Shown one piece after another: positions 15,458 through 27,057 of a DNA stretch of 64,000 bases. Positions within the stretch are counted from its first letter, which is position 1. Every line of letters starts with the position of its first letter. A program made the translations under genes and the position numbers. Source of the stretch: Candidatus Omnitrophota bacterium (GTDB lineage: Bacteria > Omnitrophota > Gorgyraeia > Gygaellales > JBFMHM01); assembly GCA_040753015.1 (NCBI GenBank), contig JBFMHM010000001.1, forward strand, positions 275,157 through 339,156, given 5' to 3'. The notes under the pieces are model-generated. The model saw nothing but the letters and a program-made list of their open reading frames with translations, had not been told where the DNA came from and ran no database searches.

Positions 15458-18400
15458 CTATTTAAAACTAAAAGGCAAGGTCTTTTCTTCTAAAATTGAT
15501 TCCGGCATCACCAATTGATTCTTAGCGCCCATAAAACTTGGAACAGTATTTGCGACAAAAGGATTAAGCTGAGCATCAGCCTGACGGTACGCGCTATATA
15601 TATAATCTCCCCCGCCCACTATAGTATTATTTACAATGAATAACCCTGAATCTTGGGTTACATTTTCAAATTTAAACTTAACAAACGGGTTTGGCCCATC
15701 AGCAGTTAAATTCGCCGAAATTACACCGCTAATAGCATCTTTCCCACCAGCAGAAATAGTTACTGCTTCAACAGTTGTATCAGCATTAGTTACAATCGTT
15801 ATGGGGTTTAATGAATCACCTACTGAACCGCCAAGTGCTGTGAGGCTTATTGTAGGAGAAGTTATAGCAGTTACCCCCGGAGCCAAACCATTTAATATAG
15901 AACCTGGGGAAGTTAAACTAATCCTATCTCCTGACAAAGGAGAAGTAATTGTTTCATTGCCGCCGCCTAGTTTATTTATTGTTAAAGGATTACCAATTAA
16001 TGTGCCATGGCTTAAACCGCCATAATAATTAATTGTGAATGGACCTGTACTCGTAGCGTTTCTAAATGTTGCATTATTACTAGTTGTAGTAATTGATGTC
16101 GGAGGATTTGTTGCACCAACATTTGCTCCAGCATTAAAAGTCAGGCTGCCATTTGCCCCGCAGGTAATTGTAAGCCCAACAAGCCCGTCAACTAATGAAC
16201 TATAAGTTTGGTTTGTTCCGGCTGCAGCAGTAGTTATTGTTACGGCTGCGGTTGATAAAGTGAGTGTATCTGTCGCGGCATTACCAAATGTTAATGCACC
16301 CGCTGAAGTAAGAGTTAAACCATCCAAAGTTATATTTGCATTAAATGTAGAAGCAGTATCACCTGCAGCAATTGTAATATCGTCTTTAAACGTAACTGCT
16401 CCTGCACCATTTGCCTGAGTAATACCGCTCGCAGTTACAAGAGTACTTTCAAAGCTGGTTGTACTGGTTGAGTTAATGATTAAGGCTGCGCCTATTCCAT
16501 CACCAATTGGGGTTACGGAACCAACAGCGGCATTAAAGGTTGAGGTTCCAGTTACCCCCAAAGTAAGATCAAAAGCGCCGTCAATGAGTGAATTAACAAT
16601 TAAATCATCGCCAGCACCTGTTGTATTTATTGTAACAGCTGCTGTAGTAAGATTAACCTGATCTGTTCCGGCATTACCAAAGGTTATGTCACCGCCAGAT
16701 TGAAACGTTAACCCGTCTAAGTTAACAACAGCATTATTCAAAGTTGTTGCTGTATTTCCTGCGGCAATGGTTACATCGCCTTTAAAAGTTATATCCCCTG
16801 CTCCATTTGCAGAAGTAATGCCGCTTGCGGTTGCAAGAGTGCTTTCAAAGCTGGTTGTACCGGTTGAGTTAATGGTTAGGGCCGCACCTGTTCCGTCGCC
16901 AATTGGGGTTGCAGAACCGACTGCATTGTTAAAAGTAGTATTACCTGTTCCGGCTGCTAAAACAAGGTCTACACCTCCATCAACCAGGCCTGTAAAACCA
17001 ATCGTATCATTACTTGAGGTAAATGTTGTTGTTAAAAACCCATTAAGCGTTATAGAATTAGCGGCGCCTGCATTATAAGTTTGCTTATTAGCATTATAAG
17101 TGGTACCATCTAATCTAATCGAAGCAACATCTCCTCCAGCATCGGATCCAGTAATAGTTGTGTCGCCTGTAACGCCTGCACCAGCACCACCAATACTGTT
17201 TACGACAATATCATTACCACTAATAGTTAAAGATGTAACTGCTGTAGTTGCCCCTATCGCACTATTCACTGTAACATCTGCCAACCCAGCAGTTAAAGCA
17301 AATGCCTTGCCGCCGTCAATTGCGCCCGTAAGCGTAATATCTCCATCATTACCGGCTGTATCTGTATCTATTGTTACATCTGCCCCTAAAGTAATATTAG
17401 CAGTGCTGTTTAAGGTTACAGTATTACCCGCAGCATCAGAAGTAGTAATACCGCCATTTAAAGTTAGGGTGGCGCCGGCACTAACATTAACAGTATTTAT
17501 TTCATCAGCATTACCAATTGCTCCAACAGTTGAATTTCCCAGCATATTAGTAATTGTAAAATCTTCAGAACTTGTTCCCCTGACTGTGCCCACCGTAATA
17601 TTGCCGCCTAAAAGCCCCGGGGTAATTGTTAAATCTGAACCATTAGCCAGTGTAATTGTCCCTGTAAAAGTAATATCATCCCCGCTTGAAGTAAATGTTG
17701 TCGCCGCGCCTGCATCCATAGTGATCGCGTTACCAGCTGCGCCAGCATCATAGGTCTGCTGATTTGCAGTATAAGTTGCTCCAGTAAAAGCAATTGACGT
17801 AGTTGCGGTAACTGAAGTTGCGCCGGTTATGCCTTCTGCGATTGCTGTACCAATACTGCCTAAACTTATGCTTTTTGCAGTTATAGTTAAAGCGGAAAGC
17901 GCAGTTGTTGCGCCAATTGCACCAGTAATTGTCACATTACCACTTCCACCGCCGCTTGTAGAATCTAAAGTCAAAGAATTTGTTTCAGCCAAAACACTAT
18001 CTACAGTTCCAGTAATATTTATGGTTGCGCCTGTTGATGTGCCGCCATTAGTTGTATCGAGTGTTACATTAGTATCCAGCTGGACATTATCACTTATGGT
18101 TATTGCCTGTCCTGCAGTAACAATATCAGCATTTAAAACTGTGGTTGCCCCAGAACCATCTAAAGTTACTGATGCATCACCAGATCCGGTAATTTGGCCG
18201 TTTACTGTGATTGTTCCGCCAGAAGGCGAATTTATTGTAATTGGATCGTTGAAAGTAATTGCATTTATTGTTGCCCCACCACTGCCATTACTACGGCCTA
18301 TAGTAATAGAAGCTGCTCCATCTTGTATTTCAGCAATTTCTGCGGCAGTCAAACTAAAATCCCCTGCTCCGCCAGCAATACCAATAGACCTACCAACAGT

Positions 18401-21154
18401 TGAAGGCTGTAATATAACATTACCGGTGCTAGTTATAGTCCCGTCTAAGGCAATCGTATCACAGGTTAAAGTAACGCCGCCGCTTCCTGAAGCAATTGTA
18501 CCTGCGGCAACTGACGTAAAAGACCCTGCGCCAGCATCAATTTCAATAGACGAGCTAGATGCAGCTGTAGAAAACGCTGTATCCAATGTAATTGCAGAAT
18601 TTGAAGCACGAATAACTACAGGATCAGCAAAAGTAATTGTCGCATCGCTATCCTGAATATCTATTGCGCCTGTGCCATCAGTGCGCCCAATTGTGATAGA
18701 ATTAAATTTTCCGCTATTATTAATAAAACCTATAGCCGCTTCAGATAAAGCAAAATTACCAGTTGCATCATCGCCAATGCCAATTGTCCGCGCTGCAGTT
18801 GATGGCTGCAATACCACTGCTCCGCCTCCTGTAGCACTCCAATTAGAATTTAGAGTAAGCGAATCAGCAGTTATTGTAATATCATTTGCGCCAGCACTTA
18901 CTTGGCCTATGGTAGTTGCTGCGGTTCCAGAATTAATTGTAATATCGCTTTTGTCTGCTAAAGTAAGTATTCCACCACTAAATGTAATCGCTACATTTGT
19001 TGTTTGAAATGTTGTTGCCGCGCCTGCGTTAACATTAATCGTGCTGGTAGTATCAGGAAGGCCCCATGTCTGAACACCAACACCTGTTCCAGCATTATAA
19101 ATTGTTCCGGTAAAATTGATTGCATGCGTTTCTGCCATCCTCATCGTACTAACAGTAACGCTATTTGCGCCAAGAGCTATAGCTGTACCAATATTTGCAA
19201 AGGTATATGTTACAGCACCAGCAACTCCCATATCCATCGCGCTAATATTTAAGTTATTTATTGCTGTTGTTGCACCAAGCGCACCGCTAAAAGTAACACT
19301 TCCTCCACCAAGAGTAGTTATTGTTAGGTTCTCTGTACCGGCAGTGCCATCTACAGTGCTATCAAAAGTTACTGCCGCACCGCCTGTAGAACCTGTGCTA
19401 AGCTGTGATGACGCTGTTAAAACTACTGCATTATTAAAATCTATTGCCGCTGTATTTGTCGTAATATTTGCACCTAGATTTATCGTATTTGCCCCACCGC
19501 AAGTTATAGATACTGCCCCTGCTCCATTAAAATCACCTAAATCTGCGCCAATTGTCACTGCGCCAGTATGAGTTATAGTAATAGTACCGACATTTCCTAA
19601 ACCATCATCTGTATCAATTATTCCGCCTGTATTATCAAAGGCAACGCCGGTCGATGTAAAAGTTCCGCCAAGGGTCGTAATAGTTGCATTAATATCTACA
19701 GCTCCGTCACCGCTTGCCGTGCCAAACGCACCGTTAGCATTTAATGCAACATTAAGAGCGCCGGTTGTAGAAGTAATTGTATTATTAATTACTATATCGT
19801 CTGCGGCATTCATGGTTATAGTTGCTGCGCCGCCCGCACTTTTATCAATTGCCGCAGTAACAGTGATATCGCCTTCTTGTGTTCCGCCGTCGGCAGTTGA
19901 AATAATTACACTTGTTCCAGCATTAAGTTGCGCTTCAATAGCTGCTTCACCTATGGTTGAGTTATCAGCATTTGCAGTAAAATTGGGGGCTAGACCATCA
20001 AGGGTGCCTGCTGCTACGGTAATCTCAATATTAAATGGATCTAATAGAAGTATACCGCCTGCGCCATTTTGAGCAGTTGCATTTGTAAGCAAACCTTCAA
20101 TGTAAATTGTATTTGCAGAAAATTCAATTAAACCGCCATTACCAGAAAAAATACTACGTACCTCTACTTTTACATCGCTTACTGCCGCAGAAAAGCCTCC
20201 TTGCATGCTAGAGAGTATTTTTATTGTGCCGGCGTTTGAGTTTTCGCCAAGGCCATTTGCAGTAATTAGACTATTGACTAAGGCAGTTGCTTGCTGGGAG
20301 TTAAAAGTAATTAAACCAGCATCCTGATTAGGTGCGCCGTCAGCATGAATTTCACCTGAATTTAACGCTAAGCCCTCTGCAGCAACTAATCTTATTTGGC
20401 CATTTTCCTCTATTATATGCCCTGCCTCAACTAGAGCGTCATAATTAACTACCTGGCAAATTAAATCCGACACATAATTTTGAGGAATCACTATATCGCT
20501 TGCGTTTTGGTTTAGCTCTGGTATAGCAAATGAAATTATCCCTCTTTGATCAAATGAAATAGTTGTTTGGTTTGTCCCGGCGATAACTACCTGCCCTAAG
20601 TTTGCAACAATTGTCCCTTCGTTTGCAACAAGAGGCGATGCTAAAATACAGTAGCCGTTAGGGTCAACAGTAATTGTGCCGCGATTAATTATATAGCTTG
20701 GATTGTAACCGTCTTTTAAATTAAATTGATAATTACCAGATAAAAAATCATCGTTTGAAATATCTAAGGTTGACGCCATAAACGATCCGCAGTCTATTCT
20801 AGAATTTGGCCCAAAAAATATTCCGTTTGGATTAACTAAAAACACCTGGCCATTTGCGCTTAGCCGGCCTAAGATTTCTGAAGGATTTATCCCTACTACC
20901 CTGTTCAACACTACCGATTGGCTGCTTGGCTGGATAAAATTAACTGATTCAGGTTGAGCAATATTGAAAGAATTATATTCAATGATTGCCTTATTAGAGG
21001 TAGTTACATTCAGAGTATTTGTATCAGGCTGGACAAAAGAGGCGCTTCCAGAAACTACTTGTGCGCCCTCGGGTAAAGCAAAACTGTTAAAAGGTAATCC
21101 TAAAAATAAAGACAGTATTATAAAACAAGCTATTGGGGCCTTAATTATCTTCAT
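15458..21154 (-). CDS. Two-partner-secretion exoprotein TpsA (filamentous haemagglutinin-like adhesin), 1898 aa
   Basis: Signal peptide plus N-terminal TPS/haemagglutination-activity domain (NSFNIAQPESVNFIQP...VVLNRVVG...ILGRLSANGQVFLVNPNGIFFG), followed by a long G/T/A/N-rich beta-helical repeat region with ~110-aa internal tandem repeats. Confidence 0.85.
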   Translation of the reverse strand: MKIIKAPIACFIILSLFLGLPFNSFALPEGAQVVSGSASFVQPDTNTLNVTTSNKAIIEYNSFNIAQPESVNFIQPSSQSVVLNRVVGINPSEILGRLSANGQVFLVNPNGIFFGPNSRIDCGSFMASTLDISNDDFLSGNYQFNLKDGYNPSYIINRGTITVDPNGYCILASPLVANEGTIVANLGQVVIAGTNQTTISFDQRGIISFAIPELNQNASDIVIPQNYVSDLICQVVNYDALVEAGHIIEENGQIRLVAAEGLALNSGEIHADGAPNQDAGLITFNSQQATALVNSLITANGLGENSNAGTIKILSSMQGGFSAAVSDVKVEVRSIFSGNGGLIEFSANTIYIEGLLTNATAQNGAGGILLLDPFNIEITVAAGTLDGLAPNFTANADNSTIGEAAIEAQLNAGTSVIISTADGGTQEGDITVTAAIDKSAGGAATITMNAADDIVINNTITSTTGALNVALNANGAFGTASGDGAVDINATITTLGGTFTSTGVAFDNTGGIIDTDDGLGNVGTITITHTGAVTIGADLGDFNGAGAVSITCGGANTINLGANITTNTAAIDFNNAVVLTASSQLSTGSTGGAAVTFDSTVDGTAGTENLTITTLGGGSVTFSGALGATTAINNLNISAMDMGVAGAVTYTFANIGTAIALGANSVTVSTMRMAETHAINFTGTIYNAGTGVGVQTWGLPDTTSTINVNAGAATTFQTTNVAITFSGGILTLADKSDITINSGTAATTIGQVSAGANDITITADSLTLNSNWSATGGGAVVLQPSTAARTIGIGDDATGNFALSEAAIGFINNSGKFNSITIGRTDGTGAIDIQDSDATITFADPVVIRASNSAITLDTAFSTAASSSSIEIDAGAGSFTSVAAGTIASGSGGVTLTCDTIALDGTITSTGNVILQPSTVGRSIGIAGGAGDFSLTAAEIAEIQDGAASITIGRSNGSGGATINAITFNDPITINSPSGGTITVNGQITGSGDASVTLDGSGATTVLNADIVTAGQAITISDNVQLDTNVTLDTTNGGTSTGATINITGTVDSVLAETNSLTLDSTSGGGSGNVTITGAIGATTALSALTITAKSISLGSIGTAIAEGITGATSVTATTSIAFTGATYTANQQTYDAGAAGNAITMDAGAATTFTSSGDDITFTGTITLANGSDLTITPGLLGGNITVGTVRGTSSEDFTITNMLGNSTVGAIGNADEINTVNVSAGATLTLNGGITTSDAAGNTVTLNSTANITLGADVTIDTDTAGNDGDITLTGAIDGGKAFALTAGLADVTVNSAIGATTAVTSLTISGNDIVVNSIGGAGAGVTGDTTITGSDAGGDVASIRLDGTTYNANKQTYNAGAANSITLNGFLTTTFTSSNDTIGFTGLVDGGVDLVLAAGTGNTTFNNAVGSATPIGDGTGAALTINSTGTTSFESTLATASGITSANGAGDITFKGDVTIAAGNTATTLNNAVVNLDGLTFQSGGDITFGNAGTDQVNLTTAAVTINTTGAGDDLIVNSLIDGAFDLTLGVTGTSTFNAAVGSVTPIGDGIGAALIINSTSTTSFESTLVTASGITQANGAGAVTFKDDITIAAGDTASTFNANITLDGLTLTSAGALTFGNAATDTLTLSTAAVTITTAAAGTNQTYSSLVDGLVGLTITCGANGSLTFNAGANVGATNPPTSITTTSNNATFRNATSTGPFTINYYGGLSHGTLIGNPLTINKLGGGNETITSPLSGDRISLTSPGSILNGLAPGVTAITSPTISLTALGGSVGDSLNPITIVTNADTTVEAVTISAGGKDAISGVISANLTADGPNPFVKFKFENVTQDSGLFIVNNTIVGGGDYIYSAYRQADAQLNPFVANTVPSFMGAKNQLVMPESILEEKTLPFSFK

Positions 21155-21172
21155 GGGGGAATGCCTCCTTTT

Positions 21173-22891
21173 TTAAAATCTCTTAAGTGCTTGCAAATAA
21201 ACCGCTGATTTTGCACCGTCAGAAGAATCATCTCCTCCAACAGGATAACCAACATCTACTCTAAAAGTAAAATCATTGCCGAAATTAAGCCTTGTACCAA
21301 AACCTACGCCAGTAATCTCATCGTGCTTGCTTTCACCGGCCTGAGGATTCCTTAAAAATGTTTTGCCATAATCAACAAACCCAAGAAATTGAATTGTATC
21401 GCGATAAGTCCGCTTAAAAAGTGGAATATTTGCATCAGCAATAAAAGGAAGTGGAAAACGCCATTCAAAAGTAGCGCAATAGCCATAATCGCCTAAATGT
21501 TCTGACTCTGGAAAACCTCTTACCGTATCAGCACCACCTATTGAAAATTGCTCAGGAACGGTCAAAACTCTTGACGCTGTCTGCAAAGAACCTTTTATTA
21601 GAAAATTTGTACCAAAGAAAAATTGTTGAAAACGTGCAAAATCAATATTTCCTTTCACAAATTCACCGCCCGCGCCAACTCTGGAAGCCCTTGGGTCATC
21701 ACGTTTTTTTAAACCACCCATTATATTTGGCACGCCTCCAGAAACCATTAATGAATAATAATTTCTTCCTTGAAAACTATCAACAAAATCTCCAGATAAA
21801 GATGTCTTAAAAACACGCAGCTCATCATCGTTTGATACTGCTCCTAAGAGATAGTTTTTCATCTGTTTGTAATCAAACCCAAATTTAAAATCTGATGTTG
21901 CGGTAAGTGTTCTAATAAGTGGATGGCTAAGCTCTGTAGAATAAATCTTCGATTGGCCGCCGGCATCAAGTGCGCGAAATTCTCTTCGAACATTAAAATC
22001 AGACCAAGTATAATTAAAAGACAGACGGCTGCCAAAACTATCTATTGGCAAACTATAATCTGCATAAGCGAATTTTAAATTTCTCTCTGGTGACCCGCTA
22101 ACACCTCTTAAATATATTTTATCTCCCTGCAATACAGCATTGCTATATTCAAATGTTGCACCGGCTCTTTGGCGGGAAACATAACGTGAGCCGAAATTGT
22201 TATAATCAATGCCGAAATGTACAGGAAATTTATCTGAAATTTTTAGAATAAGGTCTGTAGTATACGGCTTTGCGCCTTTTTGAAGGATAGCTTTTACTTC
22301 TAAATCAGGGTAATCATCTAATACAAGCAGCGTCTTAAGCAAACGGTTATAGTGAATAACACCTTTATAAGTCGGGCGAAAATGATTAATTAGGAATTTT
22401 TTTTTATAAAACTCGTTTCCTTCAACTTTTATTTCACCCAGCCTGCCTTCAATAATTTCAATAATTATAATACCATCTTTGATATCTTGAACAGGTAAAT
22501 ATGCACGGGCTAAAAAATAACCGCGCCTTTTATAGGCATCATTAATTAAATTACATACACCTTTTAATTCCTGTAAACTAAGCTCTTTATTTGTATATTT
22601 TTTAGTTATCTTTTTAAGATAGCCAGTTTTAAAAATTGTGTTTTGGCGAAAATCAAAACTCTTAACAAAAATTTTTTTACCATCGGGAATAGCTAACTCT
22701 TCTTTTGGGATTTCTACCTCTATAGGAGAAGTAGCTGGTTCTTTTTTAAACTTTTTTTCTGCCCTGTCGAGGTCTTTCTCAACCTGCCCTGCTTTTGCAG
22801 CTCCGGGAACTGCCTGAGCAAAACAAATATTTGAACTAATTAAAAGAAAGAATAAAATATAATAAATTCTTTTTTTAAAAAATAAAAACAT
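21173..22891 (-). CDS. TpsB outer-membrane transporter (ShlB/FhaC/HecB family, POTRA + 16-strand barrel)
   Basis: 572 aa with a signal peptide, a POTRA-like N-terminal region and a C-terminal aromatic residue. Lies immediately upstream of tpsA. Confidence 0.8.
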   Translation of the reverse strand: MFLFFKKRIYYILFFLLISSNICFAQAVPGAAKAGQVEKDLDRAEKKFKKEPATSPIEVEIPKEELAIPDGKKIFVKSFDFRQNTIFKTGYLKKITKKYTNKELSLQELKGVCNLINDAYKRRGYFLARAYLPVQDIKDGIIIIEIIEGRLGEIKVEGNEFYKKKFLINHFRPTYKGVIHYNRLLKTLLVLDDYPDLEVKAILQKGAKPYTTDLILKISDKFPVHFGIDYNNFGSRYVSRQRAGATFEYSNAVLQGDKIYLRGVSGSPERNLKFAYADYSLPIDSFGSRLSFNYTWSDFNVRREFRALDAGGQSKIYSTELSHPLIRTLTATSDFKFGFDYKQMKNYLLGAVSNDDELRVFKTSLSGDFVDSFQGRNYYSLMVSGGVPNIMGGLKKRDDPRASRVGAGGEFVKGNIDFARFQQFFFGTNFLIKGSLQTASRVLTVPEQFSIGGADTVRGFPESEHLGDYGYCATFEWRFPLPFIADANIPLFKRTYRDTIQFLGFVDYGKTFLRNPQAGESKHDEITGVGFGTRLNFGNDFTFRVDVGYPVGGDDSSDGAKSAVYLQALKRF

Positions 22892-22927: not shown

Positions 22928-23209
22928 TTATTGTTTTTCGGTGTTAACGGTAATTTCTTTCGGAGCATTCTGCATCAGAGACTTACTTCTTTGTGCCGAG
23001 ACAAATGCCAACAAAAGGCATGTAATAAGAAATAATGACGCAAGAATAGTTGTTGTCTTAGTTAAAAAAGAGCTTGTCTTCGTCCCAAATATAGATTCAA
23101 CTCCAGATAAATTTTCAACTAACCCCCCGCCTCTGCCTGCCTGAATAAGAATTATCGCGATCAGTAAAACACAAGCTATTAAATGAAAAAAAATCAAAAC
23201 TCCATACAT
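22928..23209 (-). CDS. secG: Preprotein translocase subunit SecG
   Basis: 93 aa, two TM helices with the glycine-rich QAGRGGGL motif. Confidence 0.8.
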   Translation of the reverse strand: MYGVLIFFHLIACVLLIAIILIQAGRGGGLVENLSGVESIFGTKTSSFLTKTTTILASLFLITCLLLAFVSAQRSKSLMQNAPKEITVNTEKQ

Positions 23210-23211
23210 TT

Positions 23212-23976
23212 CTACTGCACTCCTTTAGAATTATTAACTATTTCAATAAAATTTTTTGCATCAAGGCTTGCCCCTCCAACAAGCGCACCATCAATATCGG
23301 GCTGACTAATCAATTCTTTTATATTTGCTGGTTTTACTGAACCGCCATATTGAATTCTTATAATTTGAGCAGTCGTATCACCAAAATTCTTCACTAACAG
23401 CTCCCTAATAAATTTATGCACCTCTTGTGCCTGGGCACTGGTTGCAGTTTTTCCTGTCCCAATTGCCCATACTGGTTCATAAGCAATAACTAAATTTTGA
23501 ACATCCTCTTTAGTTAAATCTTTTAAACCACCTTCAACCTGTGTGCGTATTATATCTAAAGTTAGATTTTTCTCTCTTTGATTTAGATTCTCACCAACGC
23601 AAAAAATTGGAGTTAAACCAATTTTCAATGCTGCTTTAATTTTCTTATTAATTGTTTCGTCAGACTCACCAAAAAATTGCCTTCGCTCAGAATGGCCTAT
23701 GATTACATTTTCTACACCAAGCTCCTTTAACATTTGCCCTGAAATTTCGCCAGTATAAGCGCCTGAAATTTCCCAATGCATATTTTGAGCGCCAAGCTTA
23801 ATATTAGACGAATTAAGCATATCGGCAATTGTTTCCAACGCAGTAAAAGGCGGGCATACTACAATCTCAACATTATCAATTTCATAAAGCGAACGATTTA
23901 ATTCATTAACTAACTCGACCGCCTCTTTGACAGTTTTATTCATCTTCCAATTTCCAGCAATAATCACCTTACGCAT
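23212..23976 (-). CDS. tpiA: Triosephosphate isomerase
   Basis: 254 aa with TIM motifs (AYEPVWAIGTG, IQYGGSV). Confidence 0.95.
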   Translation of the reverse strand: MRKVIIAGNWKMNKTVKEAVELVNELNRSLYEIDNVEIVVCPPFTALETIADMLNSSNIKLGAQNMHWEISGAYTGEISGQMLKELGVENVIIGHSERRQFFGESDETINKKIKAALKIGLTPIFCVGENLNQREKNLTLDIIRTQVEGGLKDLTKEDVQNLVIAYEPVWAIGTGKTATSAQAQEVHKFIRELLVKNFGDTTAQIIRIQYGGSVKPANIKELISQPDIDGALVGGASLDAKNFIEIVNNSKGVQ

Positions 23977-23982
23977 AATTCG

Positions 23983-24014
23983 TTCTCCAGTTCTTCAGTT
24001 CTTCGGTTCTCCAG
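23983..24014 (+). repeat. Left arm of the four-helix-bundle cassette: 4 tandem 8-mers GTTCNNCA
   Basis: GTTCTCCA GTTCTTCA GTTCTTCG GTTCTCCA. Overlaps the 3' end of the four-helix-bundle ORF. Confidence 0.8.
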
Positions 24015-24375
24015 CTATTTGAATATTAGAATTTCTGATTAAACCATTAATTAGCTTTGCCGTCTTATTACTTTGCTCATAAACATTATCAAACTCAATC
24101 CTAGATAACATATCACAATCTAAAACTACATATAAATGACTTTGAAGTTCTGAAATAGAACCTTTCGCCATTGTAAAAAACTGTTTGCTATCCTTAAAAG
24201 AATATCGTCCGAATCCTTCGCTTATGTTTGCCATAATAGAAACTGCGGCCCTTTGAATTTGATTTGCTAAACCAAAATCTTTAAAATCATTTTTTTTAGT
24301 AATATTATATATCATTTTAACTAATTTTCTTGCTTCCTGCCATGCAATCAAATCTTCAAATTTTTGAATTTTCAT
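23995..24375 (-). CDS. Four-helix-bundle protein (TIGR02436-type, '23S rRNA intervening-sequence protein' family)
   Basis: 126 aa. ...AWQEARKLVKMIYNITKK...QIQRAAVSIMANISEGFGR...SISELQSHL is the diagnostic motif set of this family. Confidence 0.8.
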   Translation of the reverse strand: MKIQKFEDLIAWQEARKLVKMIYNITKKNDFKDFGLANQIQRAAVSIMANISEGFGRYSFKDSKQFFTMAKGSISELQSHLYVVLDCDMLSRIEFDNVYEQSNKTAKLINGLIRNSNIQIAGEPKN

Positions 24376-24378
24376 AAC

Positions 24379-24410
24379 TGACGAACTGGCGAACTGGCGA
24401 ACTCAAGAAC
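24379..24410 (+). repeat. Right arm of the four-helix-bundle cassette: 4 tandem 8-mers TGNNGAAC, inverted relative to the left arm
   Basis: TGACGAAC TGGCGAAC TGGCGAAC TCAAGAAC. Overlaps the pgk stop codon. Confidence 0.8.
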
Positions 24411-25587
24411 GCTTTTCTGTTAATGCTTCCACTCCGGGGAGTTTTTTGCCTTCTAAAAACTCTAAGCTTGCTCCTCCGCCAGTTGAAATATGCGTCATTT
24501 TATCAGCTAATCCGAATTTGAGAATCGCTGCAGCCGTATCTCCACCGCCAATAATTGTTGTTGCACCTGTTTTTGAAATAAACTCTGCGATTTCCTTTGA
24601 GCCTTTCGCAAATTGTTCTATTTCAAATAACCCAAGAGGCCCATTCCAAACAATTGTTGCAGCATTTTTTAAAACAGCTTCGAAATTTTTTACTGTCTTT
24701 GGCCCAATGTCTAAGGCAATATCATCGTCACCAATTTTTTCAACTGTTCTTGCAATAGCTGCTGCGTCAACCTTATCGCTAACAATGTGATCAACTGGTA
24801 AGTGAATATTTACATTAACTTTCTTTGCGTCCTCTAATATTTTTTTGGCAATATCTACCTTATCAGCTTCAAGTTTTGATTTCCCAATATTTTGGCCTAG
24901 CGACTTTAAAAATGTGTAGCTCATCCCTCCGCCAATAATAATATCTGAGGCTTTATTTAAGAGATTGCCAATAATTGCAATTTTATCACTTACTTTTGCG
25001 CCACCTAAAATTACCATAAATGGTTTTTTAGGATTAGTTACTACGCTTCCTAAATATTTAATTTCTTTACCTAAAAGAAACCCCGCAACTGAAGGCAAAT
25101 AATGCGTTACGCCTTCGGTTGAAGCATGCGCACGATGAGCTGTTCCAAAAGCATCATTAACAAATATATCTGCCAGCGAAGCTAACTGCTTTGCAAATTC
25201 AGGATTATTCTCCTCTTCTTCAGCGTGAAACCGTAAATTTTCTAAAAGAATCACGCGCTCTTTCGAATTATTGATCTCTTTTTTAATTTCCTCGCCAATG
25301 CAATCTTTGAGCTGTAAGACTGGTTCTTTTAAAATTTCACTTAGCCTTTTTGAAACAGGCACTAAACGCGCTTTTTCTAAAACCTTCCCGTCTGGCCTGC
25401 CTAAGTGGCTCATTAAAATTATTTTTTTTGCTTTGCTCTCTTCAATATATTTTATCGTTGGAATTGACGCCTGAATTCTTGTATCATCCGTAATATTCAA
25501 ATTCGCATCCAGCGGTACATTAAAATCACATCTAACTAAGACTTTTTTTTCTTTTAAATCAATATCCCTAATTGTTAACTTATCCAT
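24403..25587 (-). CDS. pgk: Phosphoglycerate kinase
   Basis: 394 aa with PGK motifs (RCDFNVPLD, GGGASLEFLEGK). Confidence 0.95.
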   Translation of the reverse strand: MDKLTIRDIDLKEKKVLVRCDFNVPLDANLNITDDTRIQASIPTIKYIEESKAKKIILMSHLGRPDGKVLEKARLVPVSKRLSEILKEPVLQLKDCIGEEIKKEINNSKERVILLENLRFHAEEEENNPEFAKQLASLADIFVNDAFGTAHRAHASTEGVTHYLPSVAGFLLGKEIKYLGSVVTNPKKPFMVILGGAKVSDKIAIIGNLLNKASDIIIGGGMSYTFLKSLGQNIGKSKLEADKVDIAKKILEDAKKVNVNIHLPVDHIVSDKVDAAAIARTVEKIGDDDIALDIGPKTVKNFEAVLKNAATIVWNGPLGLFEIEQFAKGSKEIAEFISKTGATTIIGGGDTAAAILKFGLADKMTHISTGGGASLEFLEGKKLPGVEALTEKRS

Positions 25588-26257: not shown

Positions 26258-26440
26258 ATGCTCTCCTGTTTTTTGTTGGTTTGCTTACTTACAAAATAAC
26301 AGGTTTTGTAATGCGCAAATGAAGGAAGCATGAAAGGAATGATATGTGAAGTTTGGGTTGCATTACGAGGGCCTCCTATTCGGCACACAGGGCGTCATAA
26401 AAGTTCGTTAACCTTAATTTATCTAATTCGGTAATTTTTT

Positions 26441-26587
26441 AAGTTTTATATGGTATTTGTTAATGGCTGCTTGGGCTTCTTCATGGATTTTTAATATAAA
26501 CTCTCGCGATGATAAATTTTTAGTTTCTTCGTAATGTTTTTCTCTAATTTCATGAATTTCCTGCATTGGTTTTGGTTCTTTGTGCAT
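26441..26587 (-). CDS. Small protein (49 aa) translationally coupled to the PIN gene (possible cognate antitoxin, atypical downstream position)
   Basis: MHKEPKPMQEIHEIREKHYEETKNLSSREFILKIHEEAQAAINKQIPYKT. Its ATG overlaps the PIN stop (TAATG). Below the 60-aa cutoff of the ORF table. Confidence 0.4.
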
Positions 26588-27057
26588 TAAATTACCTCCT
26601 CAGGTGAAACAACTTCGATAGGTTTGTATCCCAAAAGATTATTAACAGCAACAACTCCTATCTTTGTTTTTAGCTTTACCATATGTTGAAAATTCCAACT
26701 AACCACAACATCTAAATTATTTACAGACGCAATAGCTATGTGCAATGCATCGTCGCTATATTTAACGGGGAAAAGCTTTTCATCAACATATTTATCAGCA
26801 AGTTCCTTTGTTTGATCGTCAATAGGCAAAGCTTTGAGATTTAACTTACTAACTAAACTATGCAACAATTCAGCTTTTTCTTTTGGAGCACGATTAATTT
26901 CTGCAATAACTAATTCGGAAATATAACAATCAAATTTCTCTTGTTTTATCTGCTCAAGCAAATTTAAAGTTGCTGTTTTATGCACAGTTAATGATGGATC
27001 ATTAGTTAATGCAAAATTTAATACCGATGTATCTAAATACAGTTTAAATTTTTTCAT
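26587..27057 (-). CDS. PIN-domain ribonuclease (VapC-like toxin)
   Basis: 156 aa. N-terminal LYLDTSVL with acidic residues spaced as in a PIN domain. Confidence 0.65.
   Translation of the reverse strand: MKKFKLYLDTSVLNFALTNDPSLTVHKTATLNLLEQIKQEKFDCYISELVIAEINRAPKEKAELLHSLVSKLNLKALPIDDQTKELADKYVDEKLFPVKYSDDALHIAIASVNNLDVVVSWNFQHMVKLKTKIGVVAVNNLLGYKPIEVVSPEEVI

Follow-up and report, generated by a model that had tools for sequence, protein, structure and literature searches.

The 64,000-nt stretch of Omnitrophota DNA that was analysed (the window; 35% G+C) carries a glycolytic operon of pgk, tpiA, and secG on the minus strand, in which an additional gene for a 126-aa protein (the 4HB gene) is located between pgk and tpiA (Table 1). 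This gene is flanked by two arms of short periodic repeats, with which it forms a cassette of about 430 nt that occupies the entire pgk-tpiA spacer. Besides pgk, tpiA, and secG, the neighbourhood (about 3 kb to each side) contains genes for ShlB, an unassigned 111-aa ORF, and a PIN protein with a 54-aa partner ORF; the neighbours of the 4HB gene include a TPS pair. One single 4HB gene was retrieved from the window with tblastn. Scanning of the window for Rfam families, rRNA included, and for tRNA genes gave no hits. Similarly, a consensus scan of both spacers found neither a terminator-like site nor a promoter-like match on the minus strand, and no signal above that of shuffled sequences. This suggests that the cassette is most simply part of the pgk-tpiA-secG transcript, and an independent transcription unit for the 4HB gene is not proposed.

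Table 1. Coordinates of the features of the pgk-tpiA locus in the window.
Feature	Position	Strand	Basis or remark
Operon pgk-cassette-tpiA-secG	22928..25587	minus	all genes co-oriented
pgk	25587..24403	minus	ORF list and sequence
5' arm	24376..24412	minus	four octamer units, GUUC core
pgk stop codon UGA	24403..24405	minus	outermost turn of predicted stem
4HB gene, 126 aa	24375..23995	minus	ORF list and TIGR02436/PF05635 profiles
4HB AUG	24375..24373	minus	base-paired in predicted stem
3' arm	23980..24019	minus	four units, GAAC core; periodic part 23982-24014
4HB stop	23997..23995	minus	within 3' arm
GGAG, Shine-Dalgarno-like, for tpiA	23985..23988	minus	8 nt upstream of tpiA AUG
tpiA AUG	23976..23974	minus	
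tpiA	23976..23212	minus	ORF list and profiles
secG	23209..22928	minus	ORF list and profiles

The product of the 126-aa ORF clearly belongs to the TIGR02436/PF05635 four-helix-bundle family (23S_rRNA_IVP, 'S23p'), given profile matches to positions 2-107 of 109 of TIGR02436 (104.3 bits; cut-off, 24) and to positions 1-106 of 106 of PF05635 (113.2 bits; cut-off, 33.8). An earlier interpretation based on the letters and their ORFs (the sequence-only reading) had proposed that an IVS-type gene of the TIGR02436 family fills the pgk-tpiA spacer, and both this assignment and its coordinates were confirmed. An exact-protein look-up of the 4HB protein of the window returned no record, and relatives were taken instead. 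An AlphaFold (AF2) model built with 22 homologues displayed four helices (pLDDT 93.6) and matched 2GSC (TM 0.83, rmsd 1.6) and 2RLD (TM 0.80) upon comparison with Foldseek; 2GSC was also found by sequence (phmmer, E = 1.1e-14). The entries 2GSC and 2RLD contain five chains each, and the S23p protein of Xanthomonas is described as a homopentameric toroid (Lin et al. 2006, as cited in PMC4990558). The 4HB structure was predicted as a monomer, and by analogy with these relatives the protein may be a pentamer. More distant matches were those to Avd of diversity-generating retroelements (DGR; 4DWL and 8UB7), with a TM of about 0.75 but only about 7% of residues identical when the structures are aligned. 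Among orthologues, dN/dS of the 4HB gene was approximately 0.07-0.10, reflecting strong purifying selection, which indicates that the 4HB protein is functional. The mean pairwise identity among the orthologous loci was 74.5% for the 4HB protein versus 66.4% for TIM.

Both arms of the cassette are periodic and inverted with respect to each other. A repeat search retrieved direct repeat families at 8-nt spacing (23982-24019 and 24376-24407) as well as two inverted pairs, namely 23982-24008/24376-24402 (27 nt; 81% complementary) and 23998-24014/24394-24410 (82% complementary). The sequence-only reading had placed the arms at 23983-24014 and 24379-24410, which is right to within 1-3 nt, and it had correctly located the 4HB stop in the former arm and the pgk stop in the latter. 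In mRNA sense, the 5' arm up to and including the 4HB AUG (24412..24373) reads GC-GUUCUUGA-GUUCGCCA-GUUCGCCA-GUUCGUCA-GUU-AUG; it starts within the last pgk codons, includes the pgk stop in its first unit, and ends 0-2 nt before the 4HB AUG. The 3' arm reads AAUAGCUGGA GAACCGAA GAACUGAA GAACUGGA GAACGA and ends 4 nt before the tpiA AUG, its continuation into the tpiA start (24019..23974) being ...GCUGGA-GAACCGAA-GAACUGAA-GAACUGGA-GAACGA-AUU-AUG. The GGAG of tpiA is located in the last unit of this arm, which in the predicted duplex pairs with the 5'-arm unit bearing the pgk stop. Six of the eight arm units fit GTTCNNCA exactly, the exceptions being GTTCTTCG and GTTCTTGA. The corresponding two-unit pattern occurred eight times (1.13 expected; at least eight matches in none of 100 shuffles), and six of these eight matches fell within the arms. 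When all 64 kb were scanned for 8-nt periodicity at a threshold of at least 20 self-matches out of 24, the two arms were the sole places found. 

The complementarity of the arms is sufficient for a long stem around the ORF. With RNAduplex, the arms formed a predicted duplex of 31 pairs, three of which were G-U, with an energy of -42.1 kcal/mol. This duplex is imperfect, as each arm leaves nine bases unpaired, located in small and symmetric internal loops. It includes the stop codons of pgk and of the 4HB gene as well as the 4HB AUG, spans the whole space where a ribosome-binding site for the 4HB gene would be, and takes in positions -4 to -43 of tpiA, inclusive of the GGAG. Furthermore, folding of the 471-nt region paired the arms around the ORF (MFE -105.4 kcal/mol; z = -2.67), a stability that was equalled by none of 100 shuffles. 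Hence, arms that the sequence-only reading had described as inverted, periodic, and able to pair were recovered both by the repeat search and by folding.

The insertion noted by the sequence-only reading is neither fresh nor confined to this genome. Beyond the window, 13 distinct orthologous pgk-4HB-tpiA loci were found in Omnitrophota, and the orthologous cassette occurs in many lineages of this phylum, although the closest relative lacks it. The homologues most similar to the 4HB protein of the window (64-80% identity) are encoded between pgk and tpiA-secG, with flanking proteins that are 60-69% (pgk) and 58-64% (tpiA) identical to those of the window. The 5' array was kept in all 12 orthologous loci for which the 5' flank was recovered, as three to six copies of (A)GTTCNNNN units, and mostly begins with the pgk stop itself, the TAG being part of a first unit TAGTTC. 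The 3' spacer contains an array of GAACNNNN units in most loci. The 3' junction was recovered for 14 loci, and in 10 of them the last GAAC precedes the tpiA start by exactly 5 nt. The GTTC and GAAC cores are almost always kept at 8-nt spacing, with occasional one-base variants, while the four-base spacers between them vary by locus. Adjacent units are in some cases identical or alternate in a 16-nt super-period, a clear sign that slippage is at work in the arrays.

Wherever both arms are intact, the predicted duplexes of the orthologous loci comprise 26-48 bp, with energies of -30 to -51 kcal/mol, and mostly cover the 4HB AUG. As the unit numbers differ and the register is ambiguous, a formal covariation count was dropped in favour of a spacer-shuffle test, in which the cores were fixed, only the spacers of the 3' arm were shuffled, and the duplex energies were compared. 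The native arms paired better than the spacer-shuffled ones in 10 of the 13 loci scored (z of about -1.7 to -2.8), and a Fisher combination of the shuffle fractions gave approximately 1e-6, if the loci are taken as independent. The conserved cores together with the better-than-shuffled pairing indicate that the complementarity is maintained as well as the periodic core. Arms that pair well hence accompany the gene in 10 of the 13 loci scored, and the periodic 5' array does so in all 12 with a recovered 5' flank, on which the sequence-only reading had made its proposal depend. Two loci (L095 and L097) contained the 4HB gene and an intact 5' array of four to six units, next to a 3' arm that had decayed to one or two units and a weak duplex (-18 to -21 kcal/mol), indicating that arm pairing is not indispensable.

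The distribution of the cassette is patchy. In the closest tpiA relative (80% identity and the same tpiA-secG-ShlB synteny), pgk and tpiA overlap by ATGA, and neither a cassette nor a remnant scar was found between them. Similarly, GTTC/GAAC arrays were absent from the pgk-tpiA spacers, 12-27 nt in length, of Velamenicoccus archaeovorus and two other Omnitrophota. Carriers and non-carriers interleaved on a tpiA tree, which as a single-gene NJ tree is weak, and the pairwise identities of the 4HB protein and tpiA were correlated (r = 0.53). In these orthologues, GC3 of the 4HB gene was 0.21-0.38, whatever that of the host (0.26-0.67). In the two closest pairs, which provide the whole transfer signal since synonymous sites are saturated in most pairs, synonymous divergence was 0.23 and 0.52 for the 4HB gene, 0.52 and 0.71 for tpiA, and 0.63 and 0.85 for pgk. 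No target-site duplication is visible in the sequence flanking the arms, and no transposase, integrase, or RT is encoded by the genes beside the cassette. The patchy distribution fits repeated clean loss as well as repeated site-specific gain.

Periodic, polar, and mostly inverted flanking arrays are the rule across the TIGR02436 family. The family survey drew on GTDB genomes and JGI metagenomes of many phyla; the 160 loci collected gave 132 distinct complete 4HB genes with their flanks. With a lenient TRF call (up to 100 nt upstream, and around or after the stop), which has 17% false positives in controls, tandem arrays were present upstream of 120 and downstream of 128 of the 132 genes, versus 66 of 392 control segments taken from these loci. 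A strict periodicity score (mismatch -2) under-called arrays with variable spacers, finding 40 and 61 out of 132; nevertheless, at least one strong array was present by this score at 79 of the 132 genes versus 4 of 527 controls. The sequence-only reading had considered the 8-nt periodicity unusual; in fact, a period of 7 was the most common (75 genes), followed by 9 (26-33 genes) and 8 (15-17 genes). Median copy numbers were 4.6 upstream and 4.9 downstream, and unit number, three to six at the pgk-tpiA site, reached 11-15 in other cassettes. Unit sequences were diverse between loci (GAGGACT, GAGTGCT, AGTTCGA, GAGCAAT, and others), and the arm units differed between cassettes even within one genome (L049).

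Despite this diversity, the downstream unit was the reverse complement of the upstream unit in 74 of 99 comparable pairs, and for 60% of the genes, the complementarity between the two arms was higher than the 95th percentile of arm pairs from mismatched loci. The arrays were also polar, GAGT being found in 36 upstream units and ACTC in none, with the reverse downstream (38 versus 1). Counted by cluster (14 clusters from the 132 genes at 60% identity), the polarity had the same direction with small counts. In approximately one-fifth of the family genes, same-sense arrays on both sides make a stem impossible, a period-9 class rich in C and A being prominent among these. The sequence-only reading had favoured a recognised repeat over a simple palindrome; the cores and the polarity do favour a constrained repeat, whereas recognition as such is an interpretation. 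Of 119 upstream neighbours, 109 were co-oriented with the 4HB gene (median gap, 71 nt), as were 84 of 108 downstream neighbours (median gap, 38 nt). In 117 of 130 loci, the 4HB gene had a lower GC3 than its neighbours. Cassettes were found at many intergenic sites and in rRNA helices.

Intervening sequences (IVSs) and S23p ORFs have been known since about 1990. The IVS in helix 45 of the 23S rRNA of Coxiella burnetii has a 28-bp terminal stem, which is cut in vitro by RNase III of both Coxiella and E. coli, as established by RACE mapping of the ends, whereby a putative Shine-Dalgarno sequence is eliminated (PMC4990558). It carries three to four tandem GACAGAT heptamers, the number of which varies among strains, just before the ATG of an S23p ORF that the authors held to be decaying and probably untranslated (PMC4990558). 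The sequence-only reading had compared the cassette with such 23S IVSs, and the Coxiella heptamers and stem support this comparison. Indeed, the cassette of the window shares with the 23S IVSs of C. burnetii (helix 45) and Leptospira the protein family, an insert of about 430 nt with terminal inverted repeats that form a stem of approximately 28-31 bp, an ORF with a weak Shine-Dalgarno sequence or none, and an essential host RNA in which the stem would render the insert harmless (PMC4990558). Short tandem repeats directly 5' of the ORF start are a further likeness to the Coxiella element, the units in the window being four octamers with a GUUC core instead of heptamers.

The differences concern the host RNA, which is a glycolytic operon mRNA instead of rRNA, and the stem, which in the window also overlaps stop and start signals of the flanking genes. 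RNase III excision has been demonstrated for rRNA IVSs, whereas for the window cassette it is a proposal. Furthermore, the ORF in the window is under strong purifying selection, unlike the reportedly decaying Coxiella ORF, so that the RNA-only view held for Coxiella does not transfer. The terminal inverted repeats with a long stem around the ORF, as found in the 31-bp duplex, the regional MFE, and the orthologues, make the element IVS-like in architecture and putatively also in its working; it is not a 23S IVS, because it is located between pgk and tpiA and not in helix 25 or 45 of 23S rRNA. Intercistronic RNase III sites and REP-type stem-loops likewise place double-stranded RNA between cistrons and can uncouple the stability or translation of adjacent genes, but the stem in the window consists of periodic units and surrounds an entire conserved protein gene.

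Other element classes were considered as well. A diversity-generating retroelement was rejected, since the genes within about 3 kb include no RT and no template/variable repeat pair. A transposon or MITE was rejected on account of the missing target-site duplication and nearby transposase, the single copy in 64 kb, and the arm units that differ between cassettes. Chance or an assembly artefact was rejected too, the same architecture being present in independent assemblies and rare in controls.

On the whole, the element is probably an IVS-type 4HB cassette within the operon mRNA, the arms of which serve to insulate or excise it. In such a cassette, AGUUCNNN units would make up the array on the 5' side of the 4HB ORF and NNNGAACU units that on its 3' side, all embedded in the pgk-tpiA-secG mRNA. 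Once the 3' arm is transcribed, the arms would zip in vivo into an imperfect duplex of about 31 bp, which would close off the 4HB ORF as a loop and bring the pgk stop beside the tpiA ribosome-binding site. Like the stems of rRNA IVSs, this duplex may be a substrate of RNase III, in which case cleavage of the pgk-4HB-tpiA mRNA would release the 4HB loop and leave pgk and tpiA-secG on separate messages. Until the stem has formed, the start regions of both the 4HB gene and tpiA would be accessible. A ribosome terminating at the pgk stop could melt the outer turns of the stem and thereby make both starts accessible, restoring a translational coupling of pgk and tpiA like that of cassette-free relatives, in which the two genes overlap or are 12-27 nt apart. 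The insert would thus be nearly transparent to the operon, the stem making 430 additional nucleotides tolerable. As the 4HB AUG is located in the stem, it is proposed that the 4HB protein is made mainly co-transcriptionally and at a low level. The arms would be kept by selection for the core and for pairing, the periodic cores being the family signature. The excision part has to reckon with the fact that RNase III action on periodic internal loops is not predictable from sequence; for cassettes outside rRNA, this part is modelled on the Coxiella rRNA case.

A pure stem does not explain why near-invariant cores occur beside drifting spacers, or why polarity is fixed across phyla; nor does it explain the approximate number of five units, the partnerless 5' arrays, or the direct-repeat minority. 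These features keep alive the idea, which is the main rival of or a complement to insulation and excision by a stem, that the units are binding sites of a 4HB homopentamer ring, with one core per subunit on single-stranded RNA. This idea must be considered doubtful as it stands. By binding to the 5' array next to the 4HB AUG, the protein would regulate its own translation in competition with arm pairing or RNase III cutting, the 3' arm acting as an anti-site. In mechanism only, this resembles TRAP, a homo-oligomeric ring for short cores with variable spacers near a start codon, where the RNA can alternatively pair and so compete with the ring; TRAP has an unrelated fold, whereas the window has a complementary second array and RNA binding by TIGR02436 proteins is purely hypothetical. 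The idea agrees with the nearly invariant cores and variable spacers in the 13 orthologues, the array polarity relative to the gene, which is fixed throughout the family, the flexible period of 7, 8, or 9, as expected of a core plus linker, and median copy numbers of 4.6 and 4.9 set beside the pentameric relatives 2GSC and 2RLD. It also agrees with the same-sense arrays on both sides of some cassettes and with the survival of the 5' array upon decay of the 3' arm in L095 and L097. The structural matches to Avd (TM 0.75) add to this, as Avd is a pentamer resembling S23 proteins that contacts a dedicated RNA element in the DGR ribonucleoprotein (bioRxiv 10.1101/2023.10.23.563531). Avd thus shares the four-helix-bundle fold and is pentameric, positively charged, and able to bind a defined RNA element, but no RT or template/variable repeat adjoins the 4HB gene of the window. 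To our knowledge, no periodic inverted arrays have been described for avd genes of DGRs. Against a ring reading the units, the unit number is not fixed at five (three to six at this site, up to 11-15 elsewhere), a reader of GUUC would be unable to read GAAC although the two arms are conserved to the same degree, and the spacers are selected for pairing; moreover, the fixed polarity could be inherited by descent, with stems evolving mainly through transitions.

The arms might also act mainly on the DNA, where they would bound a small mobile or homing cassette of the non-autonomous kind; RNA pairing would then be a by-product that merely makes the insertion tolerable. Such a role does not exclude the other readings. 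The patchy distribution, with the closest relative and three other Omnitrophota lacking the cassette, the interleaving of carriers and non-carriers on the tpiA tree, and the many intergenic sites and rRNA helices occupied by cassettes would fit mobility. So would the synonymous divergence of the 4HB gene, which is below that of tpiA and pgk in the two closest pairs, and its GC3, which is independent of host GC3 and lower than in the neighbours in 117 of 130 loci; yet the divergence signal stems from two pairs among mostly saturated ones, and low GC3 could equally reflect low expression or the need for an unstructured loop. Furthermore, a mobile element would have to do without an adjoining transposase, integrase, or RT, without a visible target-site duplication, and with one copy in 64 kb. 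Its arm units differ between cassettes, even within the genome of L049, unlike the terminal repeats bound by a transposase, and the correlation between 4HB and tpiA identities (r = 0.53) suggests a vertical component. A primarily DNA-level role is hence rather unlikely. Finally, it is highly improbable that the arrays are neutral minisatellite-like products of slippage or assembly artefacts. Slippage would account for the variation in unit number from three to six, for identical adjacent units and the 16-nt super-period, and for the variable copy number among Coxiella strains (PMC4990558). It would leave unexplained why the same architecture recurs in independent assemblies from many samples and phyla, why cores are conserved across lineages with flanking proteins that are only about 60% identical, why arms match each other far better than they match those of other loci or spacer-shuffled arms, and why arrays are rare in control segments.

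The significance of the locus lies in an IVS architecture outside rRNA, in a core metabolic operon, that is kept at one site across deep Omnitrophota divergence. In the literature searched, which was incomplete, a general account of periodic inverted arrays around non-rRNA 4HB genes was not found, the sole published precedent being the tandem heptamers of the Coxiella 23S IVS; hence, the family-wide array rule had been noted earlier for this single element only. Two genome papers merely list 4HB genes. The protein is still called functionally uncharacterised (as 23S_rRNA_IVP) in a survey of rRNA insertions in CPR (PMC11270868), and its function as well as the role and origin of IVS elements are described as unknown (PMC4990558; PMC11270868). 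The locus offers a handle on these long-open questions of the role of S23p and IVSs and of their persistence in essential transcripts, through testable models of RNase III excision from mRNA, a stem restoring pgk-tpiA coupling, and a ring reading its own repeats. More speculatively, TIGR02436 cassettes might be widespread self-insulating, possibly mobile intervening sequences of mRNA and rRNA, the ring binding its own units and thus controlling pairing, excision, and perhaps spread. If true, this would provide a first function for the orphan S23p/Avd-like family and account for the harmless entry of IVSs into essential transcripts. The fold also links the cassettes to the RNA-binding Avd of diversity-generating retroelements, and PF05635 is the Pfam family that most often adjoins DGR RTs (PMC10053308).

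The four-helix-bundle (4HB) genes stand apart from their surroundings in base composition. Across the family (loci L001-L170), the GC content at third codon positions (GC3) of the 4HB open reading frame (ORF) was lower than that of the neighbouring genes in 117 of 130 loci, with a mean difference of -0.15. At the pgk-tpiA site, host-gene GC3 ranged from 0.26 to 0.67, yet that of the 4HB gene was only 0.21-0.38. Silent-site divergence of the 4HB gene and its flanks was compared in the two least-diverged pairs of loci. Between L098 and L099, synonymous divergence was 0.23 for the 4HB gene versus 0.52 for tpiA and 0.63 for pgk; between L001 and L011, the corresponding values were 0.52, 0.71, and 0.85. 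The lower values for the 4HB gene point either to constraint on its silent sites or to a cassette whose common ancestry is more recent than that of the flanking genes.

Concerning the arrays, among the 5' arms of L003, L096, and the window, alternating spacers (gtga/tcga; gcaa/taaa) created a 16-nt super-period, and the window arm contained GTTCGCCA twice, as adjacent identical units. These features are evidence of duplication of units through slippage. In two orthologous pgk-4HB-tpiA cassettes (L095 and L097), only one to two GAAC units were left in the 3' arm; the 4HB gene was intact, as was the 5' array, with six and four units, respectively. A minority of the 4HB genes (approximately 21 of 99) carried direct arrays on both flanks, making stem formation impossible, as in L124, L053, L117, L112, and the second cassette of L049 (4546-4920). 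These included a distinct C/A-rich class with a period of 9 (AGAAACCAN / CAACCCAAG). Furthermore, certain annotated 4HB proteins ended in a C-terminal tail with an 8-aa period, ..TRELTNPRTRELNL (alignment A1, e.g. P0042), and their ORFs appear to run on past the usual stop into the repeats of the 3' arm.

Further housekeeping-gene settings are found in a Blastocatellia metagenome-assembled genome (L042, 3001-4628), with pgk directly downstream of the 4HB gene, and in Flavobacterium columnare, with the tabulated gene order gmk-4HB-nadD, where about 35 nt separate the 4HB gene from gmk and 34-89 nt separate it from nadD (PMC5524665).

Coordinates of cassettes with a decayed 3' arm and of neighbouring gene pairs in the window
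Feature	Location	Strand
Orthologous pgk-4HB-tpiA cassette, 3' arm decayed	L095, 1501-1860	
Orthologous pgk-4HB-tpiA cassette, 3' arm decayed	L097, 782-1159	
PIN-domain protein (156 aa), then 54-aa ORF	window, 26423-27057	minus
1898-aa protein with N-terminal TPS secretion domain and ShlB/POTRA_2 outer-membrane transporter	window, 15458-22891	minus

Elsewhere in the window, the PIN gene overlaps by 1 nt with the downstream 54-aa ORF, which had no Pfam match; the two look like a toxin-antitoxin pair, but with the PIN gene first. Immediately 3' of secG, the ShlB/POTRA_2 transporter adjoins the TPS-domain protein, an arrangement resembling a two-partner secretion pair. The closest relative (L171) possesses the same tpiA-secG-ShlB gene order.
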